A DNA stretch of 64,000 bases from an uncultured Planctomycetia bacterium (GCA_964489445.1 CAZAYU010000003.1:134715-198714), one strand, 5' to 3'. Counted from the stretch's first letter, positions 20,745 through 41,244 are shown. The notes: generated by a model from the letters alone, not told the origin. Program-made: numbers and translations.

Positions 20745-20745
20745 C

Positions 20746-24017: not shown

Positions 24018-24932
24018 GTGAAAAAGGCAATACTAAAAATTTGTGTTTTATCCATTTTACTTGTTTTTTCTTTTATTGGATGTGATAATTTTTCTTTTTT
24101 TGACAAATCAGTTAAAAAAAATCCCAAAAATGACCTAGAAAGGCCTTTTGTTAATGGTATTATAATCGCTAAAGTTAACGGGTATCCAATAACTTTAGAG
24201 GATTTAGATGAAGAAATCGAACGATATAATGCCGAAATTCCTTTAGAGCAACAGGAATCAAAAATAACTACCTCTGAGGAAAAGCTTAATTATCTTAAGA
24301 ATGAACTTGTCCAGCGGGTTCTTTTGTATAAGGAAGCCTTAAACAGAGGATTAGATCGTATGCCGGAAGTTCGTAAAGTTATTGAAAAAACTAAAATGCA
24401 AATGTTGGTTTTTCAGCTGATGCAAGAAGAGATGGAAAAAATAAGTGTCAGTTTTGGTGAGATTGAGGAATATTACAACAAATTGCCGGATGAATATAAA
24501 AAAGAGGCGGAGCAGAGAAGAGTAAAAGAAATTGTCGTAAAAAGTCAATCTCAAGCAAAGGATTTATTGATTAAATTATTACAGGGAAATGATTTTTCGT
24601 TTTTAGCTCAGCAGTATTCCATTGTCGATAGCGCTAAAAATGGAGGAGATTTAGGTATAATCAAGCCGGGGGATAAATCTAAAGAATTTGATGAAATAGT
24701 TTTTTCTGAAATGTTAGATGTTGGGCAGGCAAGTAATTTTTTTAAAGGACCCGAAGGATATTATATTGTTAAGATTGAATCTAAGTTAGGGGGAAAACGA
24801 AGAACTCTTAGCGACATGCGGGATGATCTTAAAACTCTTTTAACTATATCTAAACGGCAAAAAATGATAAATGATTTGGTAGGTAATTTATCACGTAATT
24901 CAGTTATTGAAATAGAAGCAGATAGAATTTAA
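24018..24932 (+). CDS. Parvulin-type peptidyl-prolyl cis-trans isomerase, paralog
   Basis: GTG start. Signal/lipobox 'FSFIGC'. Parvulin 'RRVKEIVVKSQSQAKDLL...GGDLGII'. Confidence 0.75.
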   Translation: MKKAILKICVLSILLVFSFIGCDNFSFFDKSVKKNPKNDLERPFVNGIIIAKVNGYPITLEDLDEEIERYNAEIPLEQQESKITTSEEKLNYLKNELVQRVLLYKEALNRGLDRMPEVRKVIEKTKMQMLVFQLMQEEMEKISVSFGEIEEYYNKLPDEYKKEAEQRRVKEIVVKSQSQAKDLLIKLLQGNDFSFLAQQYSIVDSAKNGGDLGIIKPGDKSKEFDEIVFSEMLDVGQASNFFKGPEGYYIVKIESKLGGKRRTLSDMRDDLKTLLTISKRQKMINDLVGNLSRNSVIEIEADRI

Positions 24933-24934
24933 AT

Positions 24935-25855
24935 ATGGAAAAAAAGAAAATCAGTTTAATCATTGGGGTAGTTTTGAGCATTATGGCAATAGTATTTCTT
25001 AACCTATATTTAAGAGGTGAACGCCAAAAAAATGTTAAGGAGTTAGAAAAAGCATTTGTAGAAAAGTACAAAGATTTAGTTACTGTATTCATTGCGGATG
25101 AGGACATAGAGAAAGGTTCTATTTTAAATGCAAATGTACTGAGTACAAAAATAATTCCGAATAAATATGTTGAGCCGCAGGCGGTTACTTCTTTAGCTAA
25201 AGCCGTTGGGATGAAAGCAGCGGTTCCGATTAAAAAAGAAGAACAAATTACCCTAAGTAAATTAATAAATACAAAAACAACTATGGCTAGATCTTTAGCA
25301 ATGGCAACCCCAGTAGGAAAAAGAGCAATAACTATAAGCGTAGATAGCATAATGGGATTAGCAGGAATGATTGTCCCGGGGGATTACGTTGATGTTATTG
25401 CTTTATTGCCTACCCCTACACAGGGTGCTGATGGAACTCAGACTGTACAAATGGTTAATATTCCTATTTTCCAAAATGTGTTAGTGATTGCGGTAGGCGG
25501 GCAATTGGCAGCTAGACAGGATCAAGGGCAATCATCTTCAGGGTGGGGCTGGGGAGTCCAAAAAAGAACTAGTGAAAAAATTGCGCCATCTCCATTAATT
25601 ACATTAGCGTTAAGTTCACAAGATGCCAGCTTACTTTCTTTTGTTAATGAGCAAGGAAGATTGAGGTTAGTTATTCGCTCTCCTGCTGATGCCAAAATAG
25701 AGCAGATTTCGCCGGCAAGCTGGGAAACTCTTTTTAGCTATATAAATTCACTTATTCCTTCTCAAGATATTAAAGATAAGCATACACCGGTTAAAGCTAA
25801 AAGCGTAGAAATTTATCGGGGGGAAAATAGAGATTCAGTTTATATATCAGAGTGA
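24935..25855 (+). CDS. cpaB: Flp pilus assembly protein CpaB/RcpC
   Basis: N-terminal TM followed by a SAF-like/CpaB domain, directly upstream of the secretin. Confidence 0.75.
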   Translation: MEKKKISLIIGVVLSIMAIVFLNLYLRGERQKNVKELEKAFVEKYKDLVTVFIADEDIEKGSILNANVLSTKIIPNKYVEPQAVTSLAKAVGMKAAVPIKKEEQITLSKLINTKTTMARSLAMATPVGKRAITISVDSIMGLAGMIVPGDYVDVIALLPTPTQGADGTQTVQMVNIPIFQNVLVIAVGGQLAARQDQGQSSSGWGWGVQKRTSEKIAPSPLITLALSSQDASLLSFVNEQGRLRLVIRSPADAKIEQISPASWETLFSYINSLIPSQDIKDKHTPVKAKSVEIYRGENRDSVYISE

Positions 25856-27465
25856 TGAAAAAGATTAATATTTTTATTATTATTTTTTTGCTGATTGTTT
25901 GCTTACCGTTAATAGGCTTTTCTTTGTCTGAACGAGAAGAAATTGTTATTTACCAGGGGCAGATGGAATCTGTTTCTGTTTCTGTTCCGGAAAGGATTGT
26001 TATCGATAAGCCGGAAGTAGTTGATGTGATAAGGGTTGGTAATAACGAAATGCTTTTAAGTGGAAAACAAAAAGGGGAGGCTAAGATTAGTTGGAAGGAT
26101 AATCTTGGTGAGCATAATCTTGATGTTAAAGTTTTAGCCGAAGATGTGGAGAAAATAAAAAAGCGGATTGATGATATTCTAAAAAAAATTGGATCTTCGA
26201 ATATTAAGACGAAAACTATGGAGAATGAGGAAAAGGTTTTTCTTTTGGGTGATGTTAAAGATGAGGTGGATATAGAAAGAATTTTTTTAGCGTTGGGAGA
26301 TTTAAAGGATAAGACAGTTAACCTTGTACAAATAAAACCAGAGGACGCAATGGTTGAGATTTCTGTTCAAATTCTTGAATTTCAAAAAGGAAAAGGAAGA
26401 AACTTAGGGTTTGAACTTCCCAGCTCGATAACTTTTAGTGAAATAAATTCTTCTCTTGGCACATCAGGGCTACCTTTTGGCGGACTTTTTCCGATTAGGT
26501 CATGGGATCGAGATAAGTTCTCTGGAACTTTGAGGTTATTAATTAACGAAGGGAAGGCTAAGGTGCTTTCTCGGCCACGGCTTGCTTGTCGTAGTGGTAA
26601 AGAAGCTGAGCTTTTAGTAGGAGGAGAAATTCCGATAATGACCACCGAGGCTTCCGGTAGCAGTGAAACTCCGGGTACTAATATTGAATATAAAGAATAC
26701 GGGATTAAGTTAAAAATAAGTCCGCAAGTAGTTGACGGTGATAAGATAGATATTTTACTTTCTGTGGAGGTAACAGAGGTTGATGAAGCTGGCCTTCAAC
26801 AGCTGGGAGGCAGTGACAATATAACTGCATCAGCTTATCCGTTTACTAAAAGAAATGTTACTACGGAGCTTTCTTTAAGAAATAACGAAATTTTAGCTAT
26901 TGGTGGATTGATTAAACAGAAAACTCAAGAGGATTTAAAAAAATTTCCTTGGTTAGCTGATATCCCGATTTTAGGTGCCTTCTTTAGGAGTAAAAATGTT
27001 ACTCAAGGCGGGGGAGCTGACGAGAAGGGCGATACTGAATTATTCATTACTCTTTCTCCCAAGATAATTTATCGGGATGGTCAAGATAACCAAAAAAAAA
27101 TAAAAGAATCGTTTCGGGAAGAAACATTAGAGAAAAAAATCAGTCGTTACCACGATAGATCTCATATCCCAGATGAACTACAAAGTTATGTGTTAGCAGT
27201 TAAAAAGATGATATTAAGGGATATTTCTTATCCAGAAGTAGCTTCAAGTAGTGGTTGGGAAGGGAGCTTGCTGATTTCTTTAAAAATTTCTTCCGATGGA
27301 AAACTTAAACAGGCGAAAATTGCTGAGTCTTCGGGAAATAAGATATTTGACCAAGATGCTTTAAATGTGGCTAAAGCAGTAAAATACCCCCCCTTTTATT
27401 ACTATAAGATAAGTCTAGAAGAGATAAACTTAGAAATACCTATAGTGTACAAGCCTACGAAATAA
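25852..27465 (+). CDS. cpaC: Tad-type secretin (CpaC/RcpA) fused to a C-terminal TonB_C-like domain
   Basis: Secretin domain 'VLSRPRLACRSGKEAELLVGGEIPI...LAIGGLIKQKTQEDLKKFPWLADIPILGAFF'. C-terminal ~90 aa 'DISYPEVASSSGWEGSLLISLKISSDGKL...SSGNKIFDQDALNVAKAVKYPP' resembles the TonB C-terminal domain. Confidence 0.82.
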   Translation: MMKKINIFIIIFLLIVCLPLIGFSLSEREEIVIYQGQMESVSVSVPERIVIDKPEVVDVIRVGNNEMLLSGKQKGEAKISWKDNLGEHNLDVKVLAEDVEKIKKRIDDILKKIGSSNIKTKTMENEEKVFLLGDVKDEVDIERIFLALGDLKDKTVNLVQIKPEDAMVEISVQILEFQKGKGRNLGFELPSSITFSEINSSLGTSGLPFGGLFPIRSWDRDKFSGTLRLLINEGKAKVLSRPRLACRSGKEAELLVGGEIPIMTTEASGSSETPGTNIEYKEYGIKLKISPQVVDGDKIDILLSVEVTEVDEAGLQQLGGSDNITASAYPFTKRNVTTELSLRNNEILAIGGLIKQKTQEDLKKFPWLADIPILGAFFRSKNVTQGGGADEKGDTELFITLSPKIIYRDGQDNQKKIKESFREETLEKKISRYHDRSHIPDELQSYVLAVKKMILRDISYPEVASSSGWEGSLLISLKISSDGKLKQAKIAESSGNKIFDQDALNVAKAVKYPPFYYYKISLEEINLEIPIVYKPTK

Positions 27466-27467
27466 AC

Positions 27468-29639
27468 ATGACAAAAACAATTGCAATTTATAGCACAAAA
27501 GGCGGTGTAGGTAAGACTACGGTGTCTGTAAATACTGCTTTAAGTCTTTCTTTGAAAAAAAAGAAAGTACTGCTTTTAGATTTAGACTTGGGAGCCCCTT
27601 TGGATATTGCAAAAATGTGTGGCGTTAAGCCTAAAAAGGGAATGGTTGATCTTTTATCAGTTTGGGATAAGGTGAAAAATGATGAAGAAGCCTTAAGGGT
27701 AACTTTTTTTACTCAAATTAATCCTTATTTTCATTTTTTACCGGCGGCAATATCTTCAAGAGCAGTAGCTCATTTAAATGCTGAGTCTATAAGGGGCATA
27801 TTAAAAGCTCTTAAATCTTTCAGTTATGAGTACATCATCATTGATGGAGGATTGAATCTTACTGATATTTTAATCGAGATATTTGATTCTGCTAATGTAA
27901 TTTCTTTAGTGCTTACTCCAGATATTCTTTCATTGTATCAAACAGAATGGATATTAGATACTCTTCAAAGTTTAGGTTTTCCTTTAAGTATGATAAAAGC
28001 AGTGATTAACCGTTCAGAAAGTAAAGGTAGCGTAAGTGCTTTTGAGATTAAACTTCTTTTGCCTATAGAGATTATTTGTACTATTCCTTCTGATGGAAAA
28101 ACTGTGGGCATGGCTTTAAATAGAGGAATTCCTGTAGTTTTGGATTCACCACATAGTCGAATTAGTTTGGCAATAGGTTCTTTAAGTGACGTAATCATCA
28201 AGAGAGAGGACATGTATATATCCCATAAAGATCTGTCTAGCTTAAGGATAAAAGATAGTGCTATTAAAGAAGACACTAAAACTGATCTATGGAGCCGGTT
28301 GGGATTAATGGAACCGTTAAGAGAGGTAAAAATACAAAGAGAAGAGGATATTATTATTGATTTAAAAAAGAAATTACATTCTCAGCTAATAAAAGAAATG
28401 AATCTAAAACGAATGGCGGTTGGCATGATGAATGCAAATGTCGAACAGGCAAGAAAATTAAGGCAAGATGCGGAAAAGATTTTAAGTAATATTTTAGCAA
28501 AAGAAACTGGCGGATTTATTTCTTCTTATGAGGTTAGGCAGAAATTAATTAATGAGATTGTTGATGAAAGCCTGGGTTTGGGTCCTCTAGAGGAATTAAT
28601 AGCTGATCCTCAAATTACAGAAATAATGGTTAATAATAAAAATAGAATTTATGTAGAAAAAAAGGGAAAGATTTATTCTACTAGTAAAAGATTTACTTCT
28701 AATACCCAAGTGCGTACAGTTATTGAAAGAATTTTGGCACCTTTAGGAAAAAGAATTGATGAATCTTCTCCTTATGTTGACGCTCGTCTTCCCGATGGCT
28801 CAAGAGTAAATGCAATAATTCCACCCTTAAGTTTAACAGGGCCGACCTTAACTATAAGGAAATTTGCCAAACAAAGGCTCGGAATAAATGAGTTAGTGAC
28901 AGATTACAATAGCTTAAGTCAAGAAATGGCTACTTTTTTAAAAGCGTGTGTGACTTCACGAAAAAATATTTTGGTAACCGGAGGAACGGGGTCTGGGAAA
29001 ACTACTTTTCTTAATATTCTATCCGAGTTTATTCCTGATCGTGAAAGAATTATTACTGTTGAGGATTCAGCTGAGCTGAAACTTCACCATCATCATTGGA
29101 TAAGGCTAGAGTCAAAACCACCAAATATTGAAGGTAAAGGGCAAATTACAATAAGAGATTTATTTAAAAACACTTTACGCATGCGGCCGGATAGAATTGT
29201 GGTTGGTGAATGCCGGGGTGGGGAAGTTTTAGATATGCTCCAGGCTATGAATACTGGCCATGATGGAAGCATGTCTACGATTCATGCTAATTCTACTCAT
29301 GATGTATTAATGAGGCTGGATAGCATGATTTTAATGAGTGGTATAGAGCTTCCGATACGCGCGATTAGGGAGATGATTTCTTCGGCTTTAGATTTAATTG
29401 TCCATACAGCTCGCTTAAGTGATGGAACAAGAAAGGTTATCCAGATTACTGAAGTTGGCGAAATGGTTGGTGAAACGAACGTGGATCTCAAAGATATATT
29501 TGCTTTTAGACAAAAAGGTATAGATAATGATGGTGTTGTAAACGGTTCTTTTTATCCCACCGAGTATATTCCTTCTTTTTATGAGGAAATCTGTGTGAAA
29601 GGCATTGATTTGCCTAAAGAAACATTTCAGAAAAAATAA
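27468..29639 (+). CDS. Fusion of CpaE/TadZ (ParA/MinD-like ATPase) and CpaF/TadA (secretion ATPase)
   Basis: N-terminal 'IAIYSTKGGVGKTTVS' deviant Walker A. C-terminal half has Walker A 'GGTGSGKTT', 'VGECRGGEVLDMLQAMNTGHDGSMSTIHANS' (VirB11/CpaF family). Confidence 0.85.
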   Translation: MTKTIAIYSTKGGVGKTTVSVNTALSLSLKKKKVLLLDLDLGAPLDIAKMCGVKPKKGMVDLLSVWDKVKNDEEALRVTFFTQINPYFHFLPAAISSRAVAHLNAESIRGILKALKSFSYEYIIIDGGLNLTDILIEIFDSANVISLVLTPDILSLYQTEWILDTLQSLGFPLSMIKAVINRSESKGSVSAFEIKLLLPIEIICTIPSDGKTVGMALNRGIPVVLDSPHSRISLAIGSLSDVIIKREDMYISHKDLSSLRIKDSAIKEDTKTDLWSRLGLMEPLREVKIQREEDIIIDLKKKLHSQLIKEMNLKRMAVGMMNANVEQARKLRQDAEKILSNILAKETGGFISSYEVRQKLINEIVDESLGLGPLEELIADPQITEIMVNNKNRIYVEKKGKIYSTSKRFTSNTQVRTVIERILAPLGKRIDESSPYVDARLPDGSRVNAIIPPLSLTGPTLTIRKFAKQRLGINELVTDYNSLSQEMATFLKACVTSRKNILVTGGTGSGKTTFLNILSEFIPDRERIITVEDSAELKLHHHHWIRLESKPPNIEGKGQITIRDLFKNTLRMRPDRIVVGECRGGEVLDMLQAMNTGHDGSMSTIHANSTHDVLMRLDSMILMSGIELPIRAIREMISSALDLIVHTARLSDGTRKVIQITEVGEMVGETNVDLKDIFAFRQKGIDNDGVVNGSFYPTEYIPSFYEEICVKGIDLPKETFQKK

Positions 29640-29780
29640 TAACTACGATTGTTTGTAAGTAGTTGTCCTCCAGCAGTCTATAGAATATTTTTAATTATTT
29701 ACCTTGTTTTAAACATTGAAACTTTAAAAAATCAGGCACTTATTATTATGAAAGCGTTTTCAAAAAATTGCTTTTTTGAA

Positions 29781-29810
29781 TTGTTTTTTTAATAATTTAT
29801 ATGTTATACT
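29781..29810 (+). promoter_or_regulatory. Putative sigma70-like promoter (-35 TTGTTT, extended -10 TGtTATACT), copy A
   Basis: The sequence 'ttgtttttttaataatttatatgttatact' is nearly identical to 'ttgtttttttcttcatatatatgttatatt' at 41206-41236. Confidence 0.5.
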
Positions 29811-29814
29811 TTAA

Positions 29815-29905
29815 GCGTCACCTAAGGGAGGCGACGAAAAAGGCAATTTGCTGGAGTTTTGTAAAAAGCGAAGGCGAAGCGCAAAGCCACGGGTTCCAAA
29901 AAGTT
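29815..29905 (+). ncRNA. c-di-GMP-I (GEMM)-like riboswitch/leader, copy A (tentative)
   Basis: Conserved core 'GCGCAAAGCCACGGgtTCCAAAAA' is shared with copy B and resembles the Vc2 riboswitch junction 'GACGCAAAGCCUCCGG'. Upstream 'taaggg' plus hairpin. Followed by an intrinsic terminator. Confidence 0.4.
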
Positions 29906-29973
29906 AAGAGTTCAAAAGTCATAGTTTATATTTTGGACAAAATGTAAATTAGAGTTTGAACTAAATAGGAAAT

Positions 29974-30013
29974 AGCCGGGCTGCCGTCAGAAAAAGGCAG
30001 TCCGGTTTTTTTA
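29974..30013 (+). terminator. Intrinsic terminator / attenuator hairpin directly upstream of the first flp gene
   Basis: 'CCGGGCTGCC gtcagaaaaa GGCAGTCCGG' is a 10-bp stem (one G.U) followed by TTTTTTT. The ATG of the pilin gene lies 7 nt downstream. Confidence 0.6.
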
Positions 30014-30019
30014 TTAGAT

Positions 30020-30232
30020 ATGAGTAAAACAATGAAAAACCAATTATTTAAAGAAAGAGAATCACAAGCTGTTTTAGAATATACGATTCTTTTTGCAATT
30101 GTAGTCGCTGCTTTAGTTAGCTCATTGTTTTTAGCTAATGGGGGTAATACGCTAAAGAGTAATTTTTTGGATATGACAGAAGCTATGGCCGGAGATTCTT
30201 TAGAAAATTCTACTATTGGAGGATGGGATTAA
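30020..30232 (+). CDS. flp: Flp/Fap family pilin 1
   Basis: Class III signal 'ESQAVLEYTILFAIVVAALV' (xxxxEY plus hydrophobic stretch). Confidence 0.7.
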   Translation: MSKTMKNQLFKERESQAVLEYTILFAIVVAALVSSLFLANGGNTLKSNFLDMTEAMAGDSLENSTIGGWD

Positions 30233-30233
30233 A

Positions 30234-30389
30234 ATGATTAAAAAAAGCAAGGCCCAGAGCATTGTGGAATATGCATTGTTATTTAGTGTGATTTCTGCTG
30301 CTTTAATTGCAATGACTACTTATATTCAACGTTCAGTAAATGCCAAGTTAAAGGTGATCCAGGAGGAATTATACGAATCAAGTCGGTAA
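30234..30389 (+). CDS. flp: Flp family pilin 2 (51 aa, below the ORF-track cutoff)
   Basis: Self-translated: MIKKSKAQSIVEYALLFSVISAALIAMTTYIQRSVNAKLKVIQEELYESSR. The Flp motif is 'AQSIVEY'. Confidence 0.6.
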   Translation: MIKKSKAQSIVEYALLFSVISAALIAMTTYIQRSVNAKLKVIQEELYESSR

Positions 30390-30405
30390 AAAAAAGGAGG
30401 AGAAG

Positions 30406-30588
30406 ATGAAAAGAAGGGTAAAGGCGCAAAGCATTTTAGAGTATACAATTATTTTGGCGGCAATTGTGGGTGCGGTTGTTCTTGGTGCTAAACTAATTGG
30501 TGGTAGAGTACAGCAGGGTTTTACAGATGCTGGTGATGTTCTTACTGATGCGACAAGTGATTTTAAAACTCATTTTACTAGTCTGTAA
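30406..30588 (+). CDS. flp: Flp family pilin 3
   Basis: 'KAQSILEYTIILAAIVGAVVLGA'. SD AAGGAGGAG upstream. Confidence 0.75.
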   Translation: MKRRVKAQSILEYTIILAAIVGAVVLGAKLIGGRVQQGFTDAGDVLTDATSDFKTHFTSL

Positions 30589-30652
30589 AAAATAATAAGT
30601 GAGGTGAGTTGTCAAAGGGCTATAGAATAAAAAAGTATAAAAGGAGGTAAAG

Positions 30653-31021
30653 ATGTTAATTGAATCAAAAAAAAGATGGGTAAGACGCGCACAATCAACG
30701 GTAGAATATGGAATTCTCATTGGGGTTATTGTAGGTGCTGCAGTAGCGATGCAGACTTACGTTAAACGTTCACTACAAGCAAGACAAAAAGACAGCTCCG
30801 ATTTACTTACCAGCATGACTGGAACGGTTGATGTAGGCTCTGTAAGCGGAACTTTAGCAACAACCAATCAGTATGAGCCATATTATCTTAGTCGTAATCA
30901 AACAGATACACTATCTGTGGATACAGTTAATAAAGCTGTTACTGCCGGTGGCGCTGCAACTGCTACCAAGGCGAATACTTCTAAAAGTGATTCTACGATG
31001 GGGTATACGGTGTCTAGATAA
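30653..31021 (+). CDS. flp: Flp family pilin 4 (extended C-terminal Thr/Ser-rich tail)
   Basis: 'RAQSTVEYGILIGVIVGAAVAMQTYVKRSLQ'. SD AAGGAGG. Confidence 0.72.
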   Translation: MLIESKKRWVRRAQSTVEYGILIGVIVGAAVAMQTYVKRSLQARQKDSSDLLTSMTGTVDVGSVSGTLATTNQYEPYYLSRNQTDTLSVDTVNKAVTAGGAATATKANTSKSDSTMGYTVSR

Positions 31022-31087
31022 AAAAATTATAATGGGATGTGAGAATGTTAAGCGTAAGTTTATTTGGAAAACAAAGAAGGAGGGGGC

Positions 31088-31408
31088 ATGTTAACAAAAT
31101 TAAGAAAGGGTCAATCTAGCTTAGAATATGCTGCTTTAATTGGTGTAGTCGTGGGAGCGGTTGTTCTGATGAGTACGTATATGCGGCGCTCAGTTGAAGG
31201 TAGTCTTAGGGAGAATTCGGATAGTATTGGCGATCAGTATAGTTATGAAAATGGAAGTTATAGTTATTCAAAGACTTTAGAAGCACCTGAAGTATCTCTA
31301 ACTACTGTAACAACCGATGGAACTGATACTGGTGGTGGAAACACTAGCCAATCTAGAACAGGACAAAATCGGGCAGTACTCGAAACAGTTACTGCCGCTG
31401 CAGAGTGA
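31088..31408 (+). CDS. flp: Flp family pilin 5 (ATG at 31088; the track ORF starts at TTG 31064)
   Basis: 'KGQSSLEYAALIGVVVGAVVLMSTYMRRSVEG'. SD GAAGGAGGGGG upstream of the ATG. Confidence 0.7.
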   Translation: MLTKLRKGQSSLEYAALIGVVVGAVVLMSTYMRRSVEGSLRENSDSIGDQYSYENGSYSYSKTLEAPEVSLTTVTTDGTDTGGGNTSQSRTGQNRAVLETVTAAAE

Positions 31409-31516
31409 AACAATTAATGCTAACTTGATGATATTTTTTTTGGCTATTCTCAAGATGGACATAGAGAATAAAAAATATGGTGAGAAGCAATTTTTAACTA
31501 CAAGAAGGTATCAAGC

Positions 31517-31840
31517 ATGATCGGAAAATTAAAAAAAGGAAGATTCTTTTTAGAATATGCGGCATTAACCGCAATAATTGTTATTGCGGTTCTTGGGATG
31601 CAAACTTATTTAAGAAGAGCTTTTTCCGGTCGATTTCGGGAACTTTCTGATCAAGTCGGCGATCAATATGATCCGCAAGCCGTTAACGGGACTAAGACAG
31701 TTGTTATTTCTAGTGCTGTTGATGAATATATGGTTTATGCAGACATAGATAGTGATGGTGAAAATGAATATGCCGGAAGTCGAGTTCATTCTATAAATGA
31801 GCAAACATTTAATTCAACTGAAACAATTACTAAACCGTAA
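31517..31840 (+). CDS. flp: Flp family pilin 6
   Basis: 'KGRFFLEYAALTAIIVIAVLGMQTYLRRAFSG'. Confidence 0.7.
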   Translation: MIGKLKKGRFFLEYAALTAIIVIAVLGMQTYLRRAFSGRFRELSDQVGDQYDPQAVNGTKTVVISSAVDEYMVYADIDSDGENEYAGSRVHSINEQTFNSTETITKP

Positions 31841-31910
31841 ATGTAGTGGTTTTAGGTTTAAGCGTTATTGGGTTGATTGTATCTATGTGAGGTAAAAACA
31901 AGAGGAAGAT

Positions 31911-32348
31911 TTGAAGAATAAAGGCCAAAGCTTAACTGAATATGTATTGATTTTATCTGTAGTTCTATCCGCTGTTATTGGAATGGAGGTATATGCTAAA
32001 CGGGCTATTCAGGCTAAAGTCAAAGATTTAACCGATTTATGTATTGCTTCCAAAGATAGCCACTTAGATAATACGACCGAGATCATTCCTCTTTTAGATG
32101 CAGCATCTGGAAAAATAACTGCCTCAGAATCTCATATTAAGAAAACTATTACAGAAACCCCCACAGATATGACTTTTACTAAAGGAACCGCTGACGGTGA
32201 GAGTTTTTATTTATATTCTGAAAGCGAATATCAAAGCAAAGACCCGGATGAAGAAGTATCTACTGCAGGTACGGGTTCTGAAGGTGCTCTTGCTGTATCT
32301 GGAATAAAAATTGGGCAAATTTCCAGTCGTTTTCCAACTGGTGAATAA
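31911..32348 (+). CDS. flp: Flp family pilin 7 (TTG start)
   Basis: 'KGQSLTEYVLILSVVLSAVIGMEVYAKRAIQAK'. SD AGAGGAAG. Confidence 0.65.
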   Translation: MKNKGQSLTEYVLILSVVLSAVIGMEVYAKRAIQAKVKDLTDLCIASKDSHLDNTTEIIPLLDAASGKITASESHIKKTITETPTDMTFTKGTADGESFYLYSESEYQSKDPDEEVSTAGTGSEGALAVSGIKIGQISSRFPTGE

Positions 32349-32349
32349 A

Positions 32350-33375
32350 ATGAAGTTTTTTCCTTGTAATCAAAAAAAATCACAAGCTATTCTAGAAATA
32401 GGGATATTAGGTTCGATAATTCTTTTGGTAACCTTTCAATTAGTTTCTTATGTTCAGCGTTCAAATGACCAGCAATATTTAACAATGAAAACATTTCGCG
32501 ATAGTTTGGATAAAGCTCACTTTGGCAGCTGTGTGGTTATTCAAGATGTTAGTGCTGATCCTATAGTCCAAAGCTGGCCTTGCAGCGATCCGGCTCCTTC
32601 TGGCTACAAAGGTCCTTATTCAAAAGGGGGAAGTGTTACGCTTAATGAGATAGAGCATCGGCGTCAAGCTAGCGGTGATTTTTCGCGTAAAGGACAAAGA
32701 ACGGTTTTTTCTTCAGGGAGTAATATTTATTGGGGCGTTCCGTTTATTGATTATGAAATCGGAGAAGAAGAAATAGATGTAACCGTAAATAATTTAGGGC
32801 ATTACGAAATTTATAATATAAATGATCACCAATATAGTTTTGTCGAATACTATGACCAGGATTCGGATGGCTATAATGATTGGGTAGATGATGACATCGA
32901 TGGTGATGGAATACTTAATGTCGATGATGACGATGCAAACGGTGATGGGATTGACGATGATTTTGCCAGAGATAATTCTGGAATGAATGATGATTTAGAC
33001 TCAGATGGAATACCTAATTGGAAAGATGATGATGCAAATGGGAATGGGATTGACGATAAAGATGAAAGCCCTAGGATTGAAATGATTATGAATTATCAGG
33101 ATCGTTGGAAGCAGACCAGTCAAAAATCAGAAACGTCGTCTTCCACGATTAATAACTATATTCTTGCTTCTAAAGATGGGAGTTCTTATTCCGAAGGTGT
33201 AAGTATAAATTTTTATGATCGCAGCAATCCGGTTAATAAGATTTTAGGTGACGGTAATGATCTTCCTTTAGCGGAAAGCAATAATCAGTATCTGACATTT
33301 GAAGATGGAAAGTATAAGTATAGCATTGATGTAAAAGGAGTAAATCGTGCTAGTAAGTGGTCCACAAATAAGTAA
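32350..33375 (+). CDS. TadE-like minor pilin/pseudopilin with Asp-rich (thrombospondin-type-3 / calcium-binding-like) repeats
   Basis: N-terminal 'KKSQAILEIGILGSIILLVTF' (SQxxxE class III-like signal). Central 'DDDIDGDGILNVDDDDANGDGIDDDF...DLDSDGIPNWKDDDANGNGIDDKDE'. Confidence 0.6.
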   Translation: MKFFPCNQKKSQAILEIGILGSIILLVTFQLVSYVQRSNDQQYLTMKTFRDSLDKAHFGSCVVIQDVSADPIVQSWPCSDPAPSGYKGPYSKGGSVTLNEIEHRRQASGDFSRKGQRTVFSSGSNIYWGVPFIDYEIGEEEIDVTVNNLGHYEIYNINDHQYSFVEYYDQDSDGYNDWVDDDIDGDGILNVDDDDANGDGIDDDFARDNSGMNDDLDSDGIPNWKDDDANGNGIDDKDESPRIEMIMNYQDRWKQTSQKSETSSSTINNYILASKDGSSYSEGVSINFYDRSNPVNKILGDGNDLPLAESNNQYLTFEDGKYKYSIDVKGVNRASKWSTNK

Positions 33376-33456
33376 GTTTGCGGTTGCTAGTTTGGAGTTG
33401 AGAGATGAAAGATAGAGGAAAAGTCTATAGAATATAATTTTGAGTTACTGCAATCT

Positions 33457-34470
33457 ATGAACTTTAATGAAGGATACATAAAGATGGACAAACATAAGAG
33501 AGCTAACTCTCAAGTGGTAATTGAATTAGTAGTTGGGTTTATTGTGATAGTTTTGTTTTTTTTGGGAGCAAGTCGAATCTGGGTTTGGTCTAATGCTCAG
33601 GTTGTGGGAAGAAGTCCCGCTTATAAGGAAAGTCGGATTTCTGCTGGTAATACACATCCGGGATTTTGGGGAAATACAGGTGAAGAAGGAGTGTATACTC
33701 CCAAGGAATTAACTGACGGATGGGTTTTTGGTGAGGATGCTTCTTCCGGTAGCTCAGCTGTAGTCAATATACCTAACTCTGGTAATCCCACTAAGTTAAA
33801 CTTTGTTGCTGCTAAAGCTTTACAAAATGAAATTAATGATGATAAAAATAAATGGAAGGACTGGGTCGATGTTGATCCTACTGATCCAGCAGCTATTCAA
33901 AATGCAATTAATGAAGTAACTGAGGCAATAACTGAAATGGAAGCAGATATTACTATTATTGAAGATTGGAGAGATAAATGGCAAAACTGGTATGATTTAG
34001 CAGTAGCGGGAATCTCTCAAGCTAATAATGATATAATTTATTGGCAAGGGCGGGTAAGTTATCATTGCCCTTGCACTCCTTCTGAATGGGATGATTGCAG
34101 TAATTGTGAAGAGGCTACTGCTCGATTGGCAGTTGCCAAAGATGGTGGACGTCACGTTTGGGATCCTGATGAAGGAGAGTGGGGAGAATATGTTTATGAT
34201 CCTTCTCAAGCTTGGATGAGTACTTGGGCAACAAGATCTGAGTTTGCGGATGATTACTATTTATGCCAGATTGCTGGAAGCTATTATGCTTCAAAAAATA
34301 GGTATGTTCAGGAAGCCTGGATTCCTGGACTATCAGATTGGCAGGAAAGAGAAATAATAGCTCAAGTTAAGAGAGATGAATGGCAAGATAGTTTAGATGA
34401 AGCAAATGATGGATTAGATGAACTAAAAAAAATAAAAGCTGATTTAGAAGCAATGCTTGCAGCATTGTAG
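33457..34470 (+). CDS. TadE/TadF-like pseudopilin (probable start at ATG 33484)
   Basis: 'KRANSQVVIELVVGFIVIVLFFLG' class III-like N-terminus, then a large Trp/Asp-rich globular region. Confidence 0.55.
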   Translation: MNFNEGYIKMDKHKRANSQVVIELVVGFIVIVLFFLGASRIWVWSNAQVVGRSPAYKESRISAGNTHPGFWGNTGEEGVYTPKELTDGWVFGEDASSGSSAVVNIPNSGNPTKLNFVAAKALQNEINDDKNKWKDWVDVDPTDPAAIQNAINEVTEAITEMEADITIIEDWRDKWQNWYDLAVAGISQANNDIIYWQGRVSYHCPCTPSEWDDCSNCEEATARLAVAKDGGRHVWDPDEGEWGEYVYDPSQAWMSTWATRSEFADDYYLCQIAGSYYASKNRYVQEAWIPGLSDWQEREIIAQVKRDEWQDSLDEANDGLDELKKIKADLEAMLAAL

Positions 34471-34593
34471 CGGGTAAAGCTAGAATTTGTATTTTAAAAT
34501 ATTTAATTATTTTAGTTTATTCTAATAGCCTGAACTTTGTGTTGTTGATTATAGAATTGTAAATAAGGTGAGTTTAAGTTATAATAATACAAA

Positions 34594-36126
34594 ATGTTTA
34601 TATTTTTTGCCCAAAATAAGAATGCCTATGGCCGTATATTCAAGAAAGCCCAATTAGCCCCCCTGTTTATTGCTTTGATTACTATTATTATAATTGCGGC
34701 AATGATTACAGTTAATTTAAATAAAATTGCAATTACTAAAACGCATACTGCTAATGCAGTTGATGCTGGAGCTATTGCTGCAGCATCGCAAATGGCGTTT
34801 GCATTCAATCTTTTAGCTACTCAGGCTATGGGCATGTATGCGACTTATCAGGCTTCTACGACAGCCAGCAATCTTCTTTTAGATTATGCGGATGAAGATT
34901 TAGATTTAACAGTTTCGTTGGTAGCATCCGGAAACGCGTTGATAACAATTGCTGGAGCGTTGGCTTGTGTTCCCTGGGCTGGAAAATATATTGGTCCGGC
35001 GCTTTTGAAGGCAGGTATTATTTTGCTGTCTATTGGGCAATATTTCTTTGCCATGGTAGGTGCTGATATGACTGCGGCTGAAGATACGATTGAAGGTCTC
35101 TACGAAGGGCAGCTTGCAACTTATCTCGGCAGTGACTTAGAATATCCTTCCGACGATACAGAAGATGGAAGTAACGAGACTGACGATGACAAAGATGACG
35201 CGGATAATATTGAAGATGATGAAAGTGATGATATTGGAATGCGGGAGTCAATGGATGAAAATATTAAATCTGCTCGAGATATGGCCTACGACTACAATTT
35301 TTTAAACAGTGGGATAACCGAAAAATTAAATCCGGATTTAGATAAGGATGGTGAGCTAGCCGAAGACGCAGCCGGAAATAAGATTAACCCCAGTCAGGGA
35401 GTTGAATTTTCTTATCACGTATCAGATAAAGATACTCCGCAGGAATTTAAATGGAAAGACGGACAAAAGCGCGATCATTTAGTCAATGTAGATGTAAAAT
35501 TAGATGATGTTGTGCGCTATCAATTTATTAGAACCAAGGCGAATAAAGATGAAATTGATGGATATTTCAAGGATTTTTGGATTACTTACACAGCAATTTC
35601 AGTGGCTTTTGCTGTTGCAGATGCATATCTTTTAAGTTTATTTGCTACTGCTAGCAGCACACCAGATTGTGGTTGGTGGTTTTATATTTATCCTGTTGGG
35701 TGTACAGGTCCATTAGCTTGTGTAGGGTGGACTGCTGCAGTGATAATGGCAATTGCTGAATTCATAGCAATCTTTGGAGGTTATGCTTTGCTTAGTTCAC
35801 TTGTGGATGATATAAGAGAAGGTATTTCTGAGGGTGGAACATTTTGGGATGATGACGGGGATATTGGAAATAATTTTATTGTGACCTTGAATGATGTTGA
35901 CCATTCTCGGGAAATAGAGACTACTACTTTTCAAGAACACGCGGGACAGGATATGGGGTTATGGGAGGCAAAATATCCAAAAGTAAAATCCCAGAGCTGT
36001 GCTAGTTTTGCTTGTAATCCTGATGACCCGGATTGTTCGGGTACTTGCTCTACTTGCAGTTGTCTTAACGGAAAAAATCCTTGTGTAAATCATGATCCGG
36101 TGCTTGTGGGGGTAGATGAGTTTTAA
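34594..36126 (+). CDS. TadG-like Flp pilus assembly protein (membrane anchored, acidic linker, Cys-rich C-terminus)
   Basis: N-terminal 'LAPLFIALITIIIIAAMITVNLNKIAITKTHTANAVDAGAIAAAS' resembles the TadG N-terminal domain. D/E-rich stretch 'SDDTEDGSNETDDDKDDADNIEDDESDD'. C-terminal multi-Cys cluster. Confidence 0.55.
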   Translation: MFIFFAQNKNAYGRIFKKAQLAPLFIALITIIIIAAMITVNLNKIAITKTHTANAVDAGAIAAASQMAFAFNLLATQAMGMYATYQASTTASNLLLDYADEDLDLTVSLVASGNALITIAGALACVPWAGKYIGPALLKAGIILLSIGQYFFAMVGADMTAAEDTIEGLYEGQLATYLGSDLEYPSDDTEDGSNETDDDKDDADNIEDDESDDIGMRESMDENIKSARDMAYDYNFLNSGITEKLNPDLDKDGELAEDAAGNKINPSQGVEFSYHVSDKDTPQEFKWKDGQKRDHLVNVDVKLDDVVRYQFIRTKANKDEIDGYFKDFWITYTAISVAFAVADAYLLSLFATASSTPDCGWWFYIYPVGCTGPLACVGWTAAVIMAIAEFIAIFGGYALLSSLVDDIREGISEGGTFWDDDGDIGNNFIVTLNDVDHSREIETTTFQEHAGQDMGLWEAKYPKVKSQSCASFACNPDDPDCSGTCSTCSCLNGKNPCVNHDPVLVGVDEF

Positions 36127-36247
36127 TAAGGTTAAAGGTTAAAGGAAAAAGTGAGAAAGGGGAAAATTAAGACTTAATGTTTAGTGGAGATTAAAAATGC
36201 TACTAACATTTAATTTTGACTTAAATGAGAAGTAGAGAGGAGGGCAA

Positions 36248-37150
36248 ATGGGTTCTAATCCCGGTAAAGTTTTTAGTGTAACTGCGGTTTTTATTCTTTT
36301 TATTTTTTCTGTTTTTGCTCAGAGTGTAAAAACGGATATCGATTTAGGCAAAATACCTTTACCTCCAGGTTCCCGTGCTTTAGAAATTCCTTTACCGAAG
36401 GTAGGCAATTCTAGCGCAGACACTGTTTATTATAAAACTGTTTTAGACACGAGAAAGTTGATAAGCTTTTATACTAAAGAATTATCCAGAAGAGGATGGG
36501 AGAACAAAGAGAATGCTTTAGAAGCAATTAAAAAAATTAATGTTCCTTTTGATAAACAATATAAAGGGGTTGATGTTGAAGGTTTGCTAAAAAATATGAT
36601 TTATTTTTATAAGAATGAGCAGACATTGATGTTGATGATAATTCCTCCCCGCGGTAGACATACAGAGACAATTTTTACTCTTTCTTACATTGGTGGTGCT
36701 TTTTTTAATCAGGGATCTAGCCAATCTCAAAGTAGTGAACTACCTTCTTCAATTCCTATTTATCCACAGGCTGAATTTATGTCTCGAGTTTTGAAGACTC
36801 GCATTTATACTATAGGAAATAAAGGAATCAATGAGGTAATTAATTTCTATAAACAAAAAATGCCGGTTTCTGGATGGATATTACAAAACGAAACGCCAAT
36901 AACCGAAGAAATAATAGATACTTCTTCTGCTTTTGATAATGAATCTAATTGTAAAACTTGCCCTAAGCCAAAAACCATTTCTCTTCAAGTTATTAATGAG
37001 CTTAAGAAAGGGATTTCTATTTTAAAATCGGAACTTTATTTTACTAATGGAATGGGGGAAAAATGTAAATTACAGTTTAGTAAAATGCAAAGCATAGCCT
37101 TGCCTTCTCCTACTCAACTTACTATAATATATGATAAGGGAAGAAAATGA
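36248..37150 (+). CDS. Secreted hypothetical protein of the tad locus
   Basis: Signal peptide 'VFSVTAVFILFIFSVFAQS'. No recognisable domain. Confidence 0.5.
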   Translation: MGSNPGKVFSVTAVFILFIFSVFAQSVKTDIDLGKIPLPPGSRALEIPLPKVGNSSADTVYYKTVLDTRKLISFYTKELSRRGWENKENALEAIKKINVPFDKQYKGVDVEGLLKNMIYFYKNEQTLMLMIIPPRGRHTETIFTLSYIGGAFFNQGSSQSQSSELPSSIPIYPQAEFMSRVLKTRIYTIGNKGINEVINFYKQKMPVSGWILQNETPITEEIIDTSSAFDNESNCKTCPKPKTISLQVINELKKGISILKSELYFTNGMGEKCKLQFSKMQSIALPSPTQLTIIYDKGRK

Positions 37151-37335
37151 GTCTAAAGATATTTTGTAAAGCGCAATCGACTATTGCTTATGTAGCTATG
37201 GCTACATTTTTAATTAGTGCTATGATTGCGGTTTCTTTTTATTTTCGCCGGTCTTTGCAGGGAAAATATCGTGAGTCAGTAGATGTATTCGGAGAAGGTG
37301 TTCAGTATGAACCGGGAATGACTTCTGTTGAGTAG
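37147..37335 (+). CDS. Divergent Flp-like pilin paralog (Glu to Ala at +5)
   Basis: 'KAQSTIAYVAMATFLISAMIAVSFYFRRSLQGK' is similar to pilin 4 'RAQSTVEYGILIGVIVGAAVAMQTYVKRSLQAR'. Its start overlaps the upstream stop by 4 nt. Confidence 0.5.
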   Translation: MSLKIFCKAQSTIAYVAMATFLISAMIAVSFYFRRSLQGKYRESVDVFGEGVQYEPGMTSVE

Positions 37336-37365
37336 TTAGTTTAAACTTATAAACAAACAGTAATA

Positions 37366-38208
37366 ATGCTTTTATTAATAATAATTCTTTTGTTGGCTGG
37401 GGTAGTTTTCTTAAGTTATTGCTTTATTCCTTCCCTTTTGGCAAAATCTGAGAATCTAAGAGATAAAAGGACCAAAGAGACTATCGATAAATTGGAAGGT
37501 GCTTTTATTTTTATTAGCAGCAGGAAGTTAAATATTGTCTATGTAGTTCTTCCTTTTATATTTGGGTTTCTCGGGTTTTTCCTTTTTAAATTTCCAGGTT
37601 TAATCATTGGCGTAGTAGTAAGCGGAATTATGCCATTGGTGATAACAAAAATGATTGTTGCTAAACGGAAAAAAAAGTTTGATTCGCAAATTGTCGATAA
37701 TTTGATGATTATTTCTAGTTGTCTTAAGGGAGGTTTAAGCTTGCTACAATCGCTAGAGACTGTTGCTGAAGAAAGCCCTATACCTTCTTCAGAAGAGTTT
37801 AGTTTGATAGTTAATGAAGTCAAAGTGGGCGTTTCTTTAGAGGACGCGATGATTAGTCTTAATAAAAGGATGCGGTCGGATGATTTGGATTTGGTTATTT
37901 CTTCAATGCTGGTGTCTAGGGAAACCGGGGGAGATTTAACAAAAGTCTTTTCCCGTTTGATTTCTACTATTCGCGATCGGCGGGAAATAAAAGATATGGC
38001 TAATACCTTAACCCTTCAAGGAAGAGCTCAGGGAATAATTATGTCTGCAATCCCTCCCTTGTTTGTGGTGATAATCATGAAATCTAACCCTCATCATTTT
38101 GATGTTTTGCTTCGAGATGAGACTGGAAAAATACTTTTGTTTGCTGCAGTAATTATGCAAATATTGGCCTTATTTTTCATTAAAAAGTTTAGTTCGGTTA
38201 AAGTATGA
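37366..38208 (+). CDS. tadB: Flp pilus assembly inner-membrane platform protein TadB (T2SSF family)
   Basis: T2SS-F-like domain, multipass membrane protein, paired with the downstream TadC. Confidence 0.8.
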   Translation: MLLLIIILLLAGVVFLSYCFIPSLLAKSENLRDKRTKETIDKLEGAFIFISSRKLNIVYVVLPFIFGFLGFFLFKFPGLIIGVVVSGIMPLVITKMIVAKRKKKFDSQIVDNLMIISSCLKGGLSLLQSLETVAEESPIPSSEEFSLIVNEVKVGVSLEDAMISLNKRMRSDDLDLVISSMLVSRETGGDLTKVFSRLISTIRDRREIKDMANTLTLQGRAQGIIMSAIPPLFVVIIMKSNPHHFDVLLRDETGKILLFAAVIMQILALFFIKKFSSVKV

Positions 38209-39065
38209 TAATTATTTTAATTTATTCTTGTATATTTCTAGCGTTGTTTTTTGTTATTCGTTCTTTTTTCATTGAAGACTTATCACAAGTTTCAATAATT
38301 ACTGCCAAGAGAACGTTTCACGGAAAATTTTTAAAATTGTTAGCGCCGCTGACAGCGGTCAACACTATAATCCTAAAACCTTTTCCTCGTATAAAAAAAA
38401 CGTTGGATGCTAAGCTTACTTTTGTAAGATGGGATTTAACTGCCCCGGAATTTTTGTTTATAAAAGAGGTATTAATTGTTTTAGGGATAATAGTAGTTTT
38501 CCTTTATTTTCCTAAAAATTATATATTTATAGTCCTGATGGTCGTTTCTGGCTTTCTTATTCCGGATATAATATTAAAGTCTAAGGTAACTGGCAGAAAG
38601 AATGATATTGTTAGAGTTTTACCGGAAACAGTTGATTTATTATGCCTTTGTGTGAGCGCAGGGTTAGATTTTATTTCAGCGACAAGATGGATTATCGCTA
38701 AAGCCCATTCTAATCCTATGGTTGAAGAATTAAAGTTAACGTTAGAAGAAATTAAAGTTGGCCGGCCAAAAATAGAGGCTTTGCGCCAGATGGCTAAGCG
38801 TTTAGACATACCGCAGGTAAGTACTTTTATCCGTAGTCTTATTCAGGCGGAAAAAATGGGGACATCCATTGAGGAAACTTTTACGATAATTTCTGATGAT
38901 GTACGGAGTCAACGTTCTTATCAAGGTAAAAGAGAAGCAATGAAAGCCTCTCTAAAAATGCTCATTCCTCTTATTTTATTTATCCTTCCGATAATTTTAA
39001 TTATTGTTGCCGGACCAGTACTGTTGGAGTTTTTACGCGGCGGGGTTGGCAAAATCAGCCACTAA
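38205..39065 (+). CDS. tadC: Flp pilus assembly platform protein TadC (T2SSF family)
   Basis: T2SS-F-like domain 'LPETVDLLCLCVSAGLDFISA...ALRQMAKRLDIPQV'. Its stop TAA at 39063-39065 abuts the IS element. Confidence 0.8.
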   Translation: MIIILIYSCIFLALFFVIRSFFIEDLSQVSIITAKRTFHGKFLKLLAPLTAVNTIILKPFPRIKKTLDAKLTFVRWDLTAPEFLFIKEVLIVLGIIVVFLYFPKNYIFIVLMVVSGFLIPDIILKSKVTGRKNDIVRVLPETVDLLCLCVSAGLDFISATRWIIAKAHSNPMVEELKLTLEEIKVGRPKIEALRQMAKRLDIPQVSTFIRSLIQAEKMGTSIEETFTIISDDVRSQRSYQGKREAMKASLKMLIPLILFILPIILIIVAGPVLLEFLRGGVGKISH

Positions 39066-39183
39066 TGGGGACACGACACTTAACTATTGTTTATTTTTTT
39101 TGGCCCAGGTTTGTCACGGCGCACTAATGGGGACACGACACTTAACTATTGTTTATTTTTTTTGGCCCAGGTTTGTCACGGCG
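39060..39183. repeat. Perfect 62-bp tandem duplication (x2) at the left end of the IS200-like element
   Basis: 'cactaatggggacacgacacttaactattgtttattttttttggcccaggtttgtcacggcg' at 39060-39121 repeats exactly at 39122-39183. Confidence 0.85.
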
Positions 39184-39885: not shown

Positions 39886-39958
39886 AATATTAAATTTTTT
39901 TGGATTTATCTATACAGATGAAGTAATTTAAGGAATGATTTGCCCAAATAATGAACAA

Positions 39959-41236: not shown

Positions 41237-41244
41237 ATATTGTA

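Follow-up and report, generated by a model that had tools for sequence, protein, structure and literature searches.

A Tad-like locus with fused components and c-di-GMP-I-type leaders upstream of a giant-protein gene, probably of Omnitrophota type

The giant genes of the Omnitrophota are preceded, throughout the phylum, by a conserved locus with homologues of gspD, gspE, gspF and rcpC, a Rotamase_2 peptidyl-prolyl isomerase (PPIase) and many small genes with similarity to class III signal peptides (West-Roberts et al. 2023, bioRxiv 10.1101/2023.11.21.568195). Seymour et al. 2023 (PMC10066038) name this locus a Tad complex, known from Velamenicoccia and V. archaeovorus LiM; they note that it is expressed in V. 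archaeovorus co-cultured with its prey Methanosaeta and link it to predation. Here we analyse 64,000 nucleotides deposited under an uncultured Planctomycetia bacterium (GCA_964489445.1, CAZAYU010000003.1:134715-198714; this whole 64-kb stretch is hereafter the window), in which a Tad-type locus is confirmed at 24935-39065 on the + strand. The locus is probably the Omnitrophota version of the Tad (type IVc) pilus or secretion machine, which usually lies, as here, upstream of the gene for a giant protein. Compared with the published locus nothing essential differs: the gene set is the same and lies just upstream of a giant open reading frame (ORF) with an N-terminal C39 peptidase domain, although the window lacks the second, stand-alone T2SSE ATPase seen in most relatives and has an IS200-type transposase and two small genes before the giant gene. 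It is a further instance of an already described locus type, and its odd fused parts are normal for the phylum.

The canonical Tad/Cpa systems (Aggregatibacter tad, Caulobacter cpa and Pseudomonas rcp/tad) share with this locus CpaB, an RcpA-type secretin with a pil_N domain, a CpaF motor with a ParA-family partner, paired TadB and TadC, and short pilins that consist of a helix only and have Glu at +5 and Tyr at +6. Several parts are unlike them: here the ParA-type domain is fused to the motor and has no receiver-like domain, the secretin carries a TonB_C domain and no TadD pilotin is encoded, PPIase lipoproteins are part of the locus, no TadV gene lies nearby, and 7-12 pilins take the place of 1-3, mostly with Ala at -1, with Gln at +1 and with scores that miss the Flp_Fap cut-off. 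On the + strand CpaB is followed by the secretin, the fused ATPase, the pilin array, three larger pilin-like proteins, a signal-peptide protein of 300 amino acids (aa), a pilin-like protein of 62 aa, TadB and TadC. Gene calls and family searches bear out this order from cpaB to tadC, which a preliminary description of the window had proposed, and the component families support its reading of a Tad-type (type IVc) machine; the features that it listed as unusual are instead the phylum-wide standard in Omnitrophota.

The close homologues that bear a taxon name are all named Candidatus Omnitrophota or Omnitrophica or unclassified 'bacterium', a few of the source metagenome-assembled genomes being named Planctomycetia or 'uncultured bacterium', and the same proteins are found on contigs of several independent metagenome assemblies (longest 243.7 kb). 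The G+C content of the window is ~35%, with a strong positive GC skew. Related loci used for comparison were L005-L016 (12 loci), with L127 and L031 added through a riboswitch-core scan of metagenome contigs. Profile cut-offs are the curated Pfam gathering scores and the NCBIfam cut-offs.

Envelope core, motor and platform

The core and platform comprise the following genes.

23064-23963, + strand: PpiC-type PPIase lipoprotein 1 (lipobox LSGC; Rotamase/SurA_N family, NCBIfam), head of the conserved locus
24018-24932, + strand: PpiC-type PPIase lipoprotein 2 (lipobox FIGC; Pfam Rotamase_3 56.2, Rotamase_2 48.6 and SurA_N_3 28 bits)
24935-25855, + strand: CpaB/RcpC (Pfam RcpC 73.2 bits, and SAF; TIGR03177 pilus_cpaB 141.5 bits, cut-off 71)
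25855-27465, + strand: RcpA/CpaC-type secretin with C-terminal TonB_C (pil_N 29-94, Secretin 230-406, helical linker, TonB_C 459-534)
27468-29639, + strand: MinD/ParA-type domain and TadA/CpaF motor ATPase in one polypeptide, in the TadZ position, without a receiver-like domain
37366-38208, + strand: TadB-type platform protein, 280 aa; one T2SSF domain (75.8 bits, cut-off 25.2); 43% identical to its L014 homologue
38205-39065, + strand: TadC-type platform protein, 286 aa; one T2SSF domain (60 bits, cut-off 25.2); 45% identical to its L014 homologue

The block of PPIase, CpaB, secretin with TonB_C and fusion ATPase is collinear in the 12 related loci, and a PPIase stands upstream of cpaB in each of them (12/12). 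Both fused architectures are found with unchanged lengths in 13 related loci, and the homologous core is also present in the complete Omnitrophota genome CP070807.1. The window has two PpiC-type PPIases in tandem, compared with one in relatives; these lipoproteins might act as chaperone or pilotin for the secretin.

The secretin scores 23.4 bits for T2SS-T3SS_pil_N (PF13629, cut-off 23) and 131 bits for Secretin (PF00263), and its C-terminus matches both TonB_C (52.4 bits, cut-off 24.6) and TIGR01352 tonB_Cterm of NCBIfam (49.3 bits, cut-off 27.1). An AlphaFold2 (AF2) model based on 85 homologues has a mean pLDDT (predicted local distance difference test) of 79, with the C-terminal domain mostly >90. 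With this model, a Foldseek search of the Protein Data Bank (PDB) returns secretins first, including P. aeruginosa RcpA (8odn, 27% identity), and the modelled C-terminal domain superposes on the TonB C-terminal domain of H. pylori (5lw8) with a TM score of 0.76 and a root-mean-square deviation of 2.2 Å. Among the matches listed, PF00263 and PF03544 occur together in 120 of 120 clusters of relatives, several of which are named only 'TonB family protein' by NCBI. Profiles, fold match and relatives thus confirm that secretin and TonB_C form one protein, as had been read from the sequence; that the TonB_C domain substitutes for a pilotin is a conjecture.

In the second fusion, Pfam places AAA_31, CbiA and ParA within residues 2-186 (AAA_31/ParA 2-168, AAA_31 at 56 bits) and T2SSE at 370-651 (223 bits). 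Compared with solved structures, the C-terminal half is close to Caulobacter CpaF (8rkd, 371 bits, E 6e-110), with archaeal FlaI at 145 bits, and the best NCBIfam match of the protein is the TadA family TIGR03819 at 332.7 bits, just under the cut-off of 373. The nearest solved relatives of the N-terminal half are ParA/MinD proteins (ParA family 3ea0, 63.8 bits), and MinD models reach ~80 bits, below cut-off. This ParA/MinD domain begins at residue 2, and its position, fused to TadA, fits TadZ; because it looks more like MinD/ParA and has no receiver-like part ahead of it, as CpaE/TadZ do, the name 'CpaE' is an analogy of function. The fusion first described as CpaE-CpaF is a genuine single gene, whose N-terminal half may be an analogue of TadZ. 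At least 120 clusters of relatives, at 55-68% identity and with 717-735 aa in all but one (typically ~722 aa), all pair a ParA-family domain with T2SSE. Directly after the fusion gene, L006, L008, L009, L010, L011, L013, L015 and L127 encode a T2SSE ATPase on its own (353-355 aa, with ~43% identity to the CpaF half), which could be a second motor, for example for retraction; no such second ATPase is present in the window, L007 or L014, and L005 has a 212-aa remnant only.

An origin of the fused genes by frameshift joins in assembly, or of the small ORFs by chance, has a negligible probability. Both fusions are conserved (at least 120 clusters for the ATPase, 120 of 120 listed secretins), identical fusion gene models occur in four independent assemblies of the same organism from different samples, and orthologues of the small ORFs, in conserved order and with the motif kept, are found in 8 other loci. 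Given the phylum-wide conservation and the same models in independent assemblies, the fusions are real genes, and the artefact that the preliminary description had raised as a concern is ruled out.

West-Roberts et al. 2023 interpret the locus as a T2SS (type II secretion system)-like system preceding the giant genes. In that case the 'pilins' would be pseudopilins: instead of an adhesive pilus they would build a short piston, and this would drive the giant protein, or other effectors, out through the secretin. GspD-type secretins are indeed the best whole-chain fold matches of the secretin model in the PDB, the giant gene adjoins the locus and has the same riboswitch leader, and the many distinct minor-pilin-like subunits have a conserved order. 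However, CpaB scores above its cut-off, the motor reaches 371 bits with CpaF but 53 bits with TIGR02533 GspE (cut-off 630) and has a ParA-type partner, two single-domain T2SSF proteins stand in place of the one double-domain GspF, and the small proteins carry an A↓QSxLEY signal (the arrow separating positions -1 and +1) in place of the G↓F-T-L-x-E of pseudopilins. None of the locus proteins matches a GspC, GspL or GspM family in Pfam or NCBIfam, and the giant proteins are described as multi-transmembrane with SecA-like domains of their own (West-Roberts et al. 2023). We consider such an exporter unlikely, and since the component families are Tad-type and not T2SS-type, 'Tad-like' is the better name.

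Pilins and prepilin processing

Behind the envelope core a second unit begins, downstream of a c-di-GMP-I-type aptamer; it comprises the pilins and pilin-like proteins, a periplasmic protein of 300 aa and the TadB/TadC platform. The genes between motor and platform are the following.

30032-30232, + strand: pilin 1, 66 aa, ...KERE-S↓QAVLEY; orthologue in L006
30234-30389, + strand: pilin 2, 51 aa, KSK-A↓QSIVEY; Flp_Fap 19.5 bits (cut-off 32.2)
30406-30588, + strand: pilin 3, 60 aa, RVK-A↓QSILEY
30653-31021, + strand: pilin 4, 122 aa, VRR-A↓QSTVEY; Ser/Thr-rich tail; Class_IIIsignal 18.6 bits (cut-off 23.7); orthologues in relatives
31088-31408, + strand: pilin 5, 106 aa, LRK-G↓QSSLEY; Class_IIIsignal 17.5 bits (cut-off 23.7)
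31517-31840, + strand: pilin 6, 107 aa, LKK-G↓RFFLEY; recent paralogue of pilin 5
31911-32348, + strand: pilin 7, 145 aa, KNK-G↓QSLTEY
32350-33375, + strand: large pilin-like protein, 341 aa, QKK-S↓QAILEI; no Pfam family
33484-34470, + strand: large pilin-like protein, 328 aa, RAN-S↓QVVIEL; no Pfam family
34594-36126, + strand: TadG-like protein, 510 aa; signal-like N-terminus KK-A↓QLAPLF, AVDAGAIAAA motif, ~5 hydrophobic segments; PF13400 Tad 18.2 bits (cut-off 22.3)
36248-37150, + strand: Sec-type signal-peptide protein, 300 aa; no family match; conserved partner of the 62-aa gene
37147-37335, + strand: pilin-like protein, 62 aa, FCK-A↓QSTIAY, with Ala in place of Glu at +5; L006 and L011 have counterparts of 67 and 56 aa

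A six-frame scan for [GAS]-x4-E-[YFLI] followed by an uncharged hydrophobic stretch finds nine + strand sites at 30062-33508, within 4.5 kb, and one spurious match elsewhere in the six frames of the 64 kb. With nine sites on one strand against one elsewhere the cluster is not due to chance; the nine are the seven small pilin genes and the starts of the 341-aa and 328-aa proteins. A second scan, which looked for a hydrophobic helix at the N-terminus of any short ORF, brings in just two more, the 62-aa gene at 37147 and the 510-aa protein, and seven tandem small pilins with one downstream are also called on four independent assemblies of the same organism. The initial count of eight tandem pilins and a ninth is thereby corrected to seven and one (the 62-aa protein), and the Gly at -1 noted for pilins 5-7 is recovered by the motif scan.

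A class III-like [KR]-[GAS]↓Q signature is present in eleven locus proteins. In relatives the signal consensus is [KR]-K-A↓Q-S-[IT]-L-E-Y, taken from 60 ORFs of other loci that include at least one unrelated chance match; position -1 is Ala in 44, Gly in 9 and Ser in 7, with Gln at +1 in 53/60 and Tyr at +6 in 48/60. The first pilin after the riboswitch of L127 (~7750-7800) reads MKNKKLKKT↓QSIIEY with Thr at the predicted -1, so that T joins A, G and S among the residues at this position.

Pilin 2 is the single pilin of eight with a Flp_Fap score, and an NCBIfam search of the small pilins gave no match. The family is large and real: out of 1.84 billion, a profile of the window's eight pilins retrieves 4604 cluster representatives at E<=1e-3, and 888 of these remain at E<=1e-10; in the best 150 family members at E<=0.01, Class_IIIsignal matches 40, Flp_Fap 16 and DUF4244 7. 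The AF2 model of pilin 5, based on an alignment of 100 sequences, consists of a single long helix (residues 9-48; pLDDT >90 over ~11-40) and, behind it, a low-confidence Ser/Thr/Gly-rich tail, with no globular domain. On the one-helix model, the signal and the sub-threshold Pfam scores, the window pilins are helix-only and Flp-like with a signal resembling that of archaeal class III pilins, and lie outside Flp_Fap by the Pfam criterion. Archaeal class III (Epd/DUF361-type) pilins share the [KR]-[GAS]↓Q-x-S-x-E-[YF] N-terminus, and their Class_IIIsignal family (PF04021) is the most frequent weak match. However, the window scores are below gathering, the surrounding machinery is bacterial and diderm (secretin, CpaB), and no archaeal-type peptidase was found.

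Of the domains assigned at the outset, profile searches recover Secretin, TonB_C, AAA_31, T2SSE and T2SSF but not Flp_Fap or TadE. The labels TadE, TadF and TadG rest on analogy: the first two have no PF07811 match and share only the S↓Q-x-x-x-E signal, while TadG keeps its sub-threshold PF13400 score. The AVDAGAIAAA of the 510-aa protein resembles a motif that we take to be typical of the TadG family, and homologues of 436-558 aa occur in L006, L009, L011 and L014. In the 341-aa protein, an Asp-rich region of DxDxDG repeats on inspection resembles thrombospondin type 3 repeats (NCBIfam throspo3_MtsC, E 0.37 only); the N-terminal homologues of this protein in relatives, at the same position, have 177-260 aa, so that the window version is enlarged, as is the 328-aa protein relative to the 81-88-aa proteins at its position. 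The secreted protein of 300 aa that had been listed without a family indeed has a Sec-type signal peptide and no family match; a word-indexed search found only 2 clusters, and weak homologues lie beside the same neighbours in L006 and L014.

The paralogue number first described as very high is at the low end for such arrays, which have 8-12 pilin genes in relatives. Orthologues of pilins 2, 3 and 4 occur in the same order in other species and usually outscore the best paralogue within the window: pilin 2 has orthologues at 46-54 bits in 7 loci against 40.8 for the best in-window paralogue, and for pilin 3 six of seven loci give 41-51 bits and L014, the seventh, 32.3, with the best paralogue also at 32.3. 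Pilins 5 and 6 form a closer pair. This conserved orthologous order disfavours the antigenic diversification suggested for the divergent tails, and we reject an antigenic-variation reading of the array; the pattern points to old specialised subunit types with some local duplication, not to a recently expanded set.

In agreement with the earlier statement that the window lacks TadV/CpaA, we found no A24 peptidase among its ORFs of at least 110 aa and no multi-transmembrane ORF with GxGD, a crude proxy for A24, in the window or in L005-L016. No A24-like gene lies within 10 kb of the ATPase in the 12 related loci, 13 loci in all being without one nearby, and Peptidase_A24 is absent from the precomputed Pfam lists of five loci. 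The TadG-like protein, polytopic and with membrane Asp residues, was dropped as a hidden peptidase because it has no GxGD and carries the TadG-resembling motif. In the part of the KEGG Orthology table of Seymour et al. 2023 that covers about three genomes, genome 221, a single genome of completeness not known, has K02279, K02280 and K02283 (CpaB, CpaC and CpaF), and K02278 (CpaA), K02654 (PilD), K07991, K02464 and K02506 do not appear. The ordinary expectation is that the prepilin peptidase is encoded elsewhere in the genome.

The Kil system of M. xanthus is a Tad-like machine required for contact-dependent killing whose cognate peptidase KilA is dispensable, the authors invoking prepilin peptidase promiscuity, and whose pilins are partly redundant (Seef et al. 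2021, PMC8460266). The window locus might likewise be a Tad-derived apparatus at the prey contact site, needed for lysis, with the pilins only partly needed as fibres. Like Kil it is Tad-derived, has several pilin-like proteins in a (likely) predatory context and no need of a peptidase in cis; moreover, Velamenicoccia RcpA groups with RcpA of the predatory Stigmatella, Vulgatibacter and Lysobacter, and the predator V. archaeovorus expresses its Tad complex (Seymour et al. 2023). However, the FHA-domain proteins of Kil, its FHA-fused ATPase, its short secretin without N0 and its two clusters have no counterpart here: no locus protein matches FHA, no secretin is without N-terminal domains and the genes are not split in two. 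A Kil-like killing apparatus is a tentative reading, and a Tad-type pilus or secretion machine of the Omnitrophota kind the one we prefer.

Riboswitch leaders and the giant gene

Two leaders, the giant gene and the genes inserted before it lie as follows; c-di-GMP stands for cyclic di-GMP.

29802-29810, + strand: extended -10-like box TGTTATACT before the pilin leader (sequence inspection)
29825-29996, + strand: c-di-GMP-I (GEMM-I) type aptamer on the pilin side (RF03167 match 29833-29989), in the 380-nt gap between ATPase and pilin 1
29974-30012, + strand: terminator hairpin and U7 on the pilin side, -22.8 kcal/mol, z -5.9; its 5' arm GCCGGGCUGCC is the aptamer 3' strand
39142-39885, - strand: IS200/IS605-type Y1 transposase, which follows tadC also in another assembly of the same organism (L003)
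40228-40503, - strand: AbrB/SpoVT-like small protein
40632-40922, - strand: GxxExxY-type small protein
41227-41235, + strand: ATATGTTATA[CT]T box ahead of the giant-gene leader, the same as before the pilin leader
41240-41415, + strand: second c-di-GMP-I riboswitch (aptamer 41247-41377, terminator 41364-41415), ~150 nt upstream of the giant ORF
41531-64000 and beyond the right window edge, + strand: giant ORF, at least 7490 aa; N-terminal transmembrane segment; Peptidase_C39 at aa 174-256

The giant-side aptamer scores 47.2 bits with RF01051 (gathering score 35), and its terminator hairpin (-24.7 kcal/mol, z -6.5) overlaps the aptamer. For the pilin-side element the sole listed match is RF03167, at 32.6 bits against a gathering score of 59 (local E 5.5e-6); it aligns with the elements that L006 and L008 have in this place, which at 46 and 38.7 bits both exceed the RF01051 gathering score. 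A covariance model built from four sequences (R1; the two window elements, L006 and L008) finds further copies just upstream of the pilin arrays of L009, L013, L014, L015 and L011, at E 8e-17 to 8e-5. With L127, an Omnitrophota Tad locus recovered by a blind scan of metagenome contigs for a 16-nt core, in which the element lies between the ATPases and the pilin array, the element is found directly upstream of the first pilin gene in 8/8 array-bearing relatives (L006, L008, L009, L011, L013, L014, L015 and L127). Apart from L127 and L031, the two relevant loci, the core scan returned mostly high-GC GEMM-I elements that precede genes for secreted proteins in other organisms. In L031, an equivalent element (3903-4006) lies 160 nt upstream of a homologue of the giant-ORF N-terminus (29% identity over 270 aa).

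Both window elements share the core AAGGCAA...GCGCAAAGCCACGG...AGCCGGGCUGCCG and have long insertions in the second hairpin (P2). In each case examined, a strong hairpin with a U-run behind it takes the aptamer 3' strand GCCGGGCUGCC as its 5' arm, and L006, L008 and L009 have the same design. As in the c-di-GMP-I riboswitches of pilus and adhesion genes, the giant-side element passes the RF01051 gathering score and aptamer plus terminator have the design of a transcriptional switch; unlike them, the P2 insertions are long and the pilin-side copy here is sub-threshold. The layout suggests a transcriptional ON switch in which the ligand-bound aptamer would exclude the terminator, and TadB and TadC, being downstream of the pilins here, would also be gated. 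The ATATGTTATA[CT]T boxes can be read as putative extended -10 promoters. A consensus scan for promoters and terminators was uninformative, with 75 promoter-like sites against 65 expected, and the loops of the two riboswitch terminators are too long for it, so that both went undetected.

The papers searched, those on Omnitrophota included, contain no mention of a riboswitch at such loci; nor do they describe either fusion, a signal with Ala at -1 and Gln at +1, or the absence of a peptidase. They also report no case in which one leader type precedes both a pilin array and a giant gene. Placement of c-di-GMP riboswitches before both is apparently undescribed.

The giant ORF scores 25.5 bits for Peptidase_C39 (Pfam, cut-off 22), with no other Pfam family in its 7490 aa, and a search of metagenome contigs with its N-terminus gave no relative. 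Three genes are inserted between tadC and the giant-gene leader on the - strand (39142-40934): the transposase and the two small genes listed above. Elsewhere in the window, the C-terminal 2712 aa of another very long protein enter at the left edge (3-8138, + strand; a stop-free frame of 2712 codons), with TPR repeats near the end, two internal ~450-aa repeats that each contain GVFP[AG]DYKM[NS]NCG[IV]T, and a weak AceK-kinase-like match. At 19106-22264 (+ strand) an anti-sigma-factor-like kinase, a STAS anti-anti-sigma protein and MlaE/MlaF/MlaD represent ordinary envelope housekeeping and recur in L001. A PIN_5 or 'RNA ligase partner' gene (TIGR03875, 185 bits) at 22301-22876 (- strand) lies just upstream of the PPIase genes and at an equal position in L005 (5502-6086) and L008 (5727-6308), which suggests that its synteny with the Tad locus is conserved.

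Putative mechanism and significance

At high c-di-GMP the aptamer would fold, the terminator could not form and the pilin and platform genes would be transcribed; given the same leader design, the giant gene and the pilin unit would be switched on together. Prepilins of the form [KR]-K-[A/G/S]↓Q-S-x-L-E-Y would be cut by a prepilin peptidase encoded elsewhere in the genome, and the CpaF domain would assemble the cut pilins on TadB/TadC. The fibre would leave through the secretin, which the TonB-like domain may tether in the periplasm. Since distinct pilin types recur as a set in a fixed order, the fibre may be built of specialised subunits, with large tip or minor subunits perhaps binding prey or host cells.

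Several points weigh against this account. None of the assignments as pilin, TadE/F or TadG scores above a curated Pfam or NCBIfam cut-off. Prepilin processing is assumed, as the search for a prepilin peptidase in the window, and in the 10 kb on either side in relatives, found none, and Ala at -1 is unusual for substrates of bacterial prepilin peptidases. The pilin-side aptamer of the window is below the Rfam gathering score, and both the ligand and the ON/OFF logic are deduced from sequence only. A short pseudopilus driving secretion would fit the same genes, the locus being known from genes alone, and the sequence does not discriminate between long adhesive fibres, a secretion piston that stays short, and killing of the Kil kind as the output. 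A bolder proposal, which we regard as improbable, is that Omnitrophota have no canonical A24 peptidase and mature their [KR]-K-Ala↓Gln pilins with a different or very divergent enzyme, and that the Tad machine and the giant protein form one device, gated by c-di-GMP riboswitches, whose parts are deployed together on prey contact.

For annotation, the secretin-TonB_C and ParA-CpaF fusions are the normal architecture of Omnitrophota and should not be treated as artefacts; the name 'TonB family protein', under which several database entries list the secretin, is wrong for it. The riboswitch pair and the Ala -1/Gln +1 signal without a nearby peptidase are the points of note. The pair offers a testable regulatory link between c-di-GMP, the pilin and platform operon, and a giant gene that others have tied to predation.

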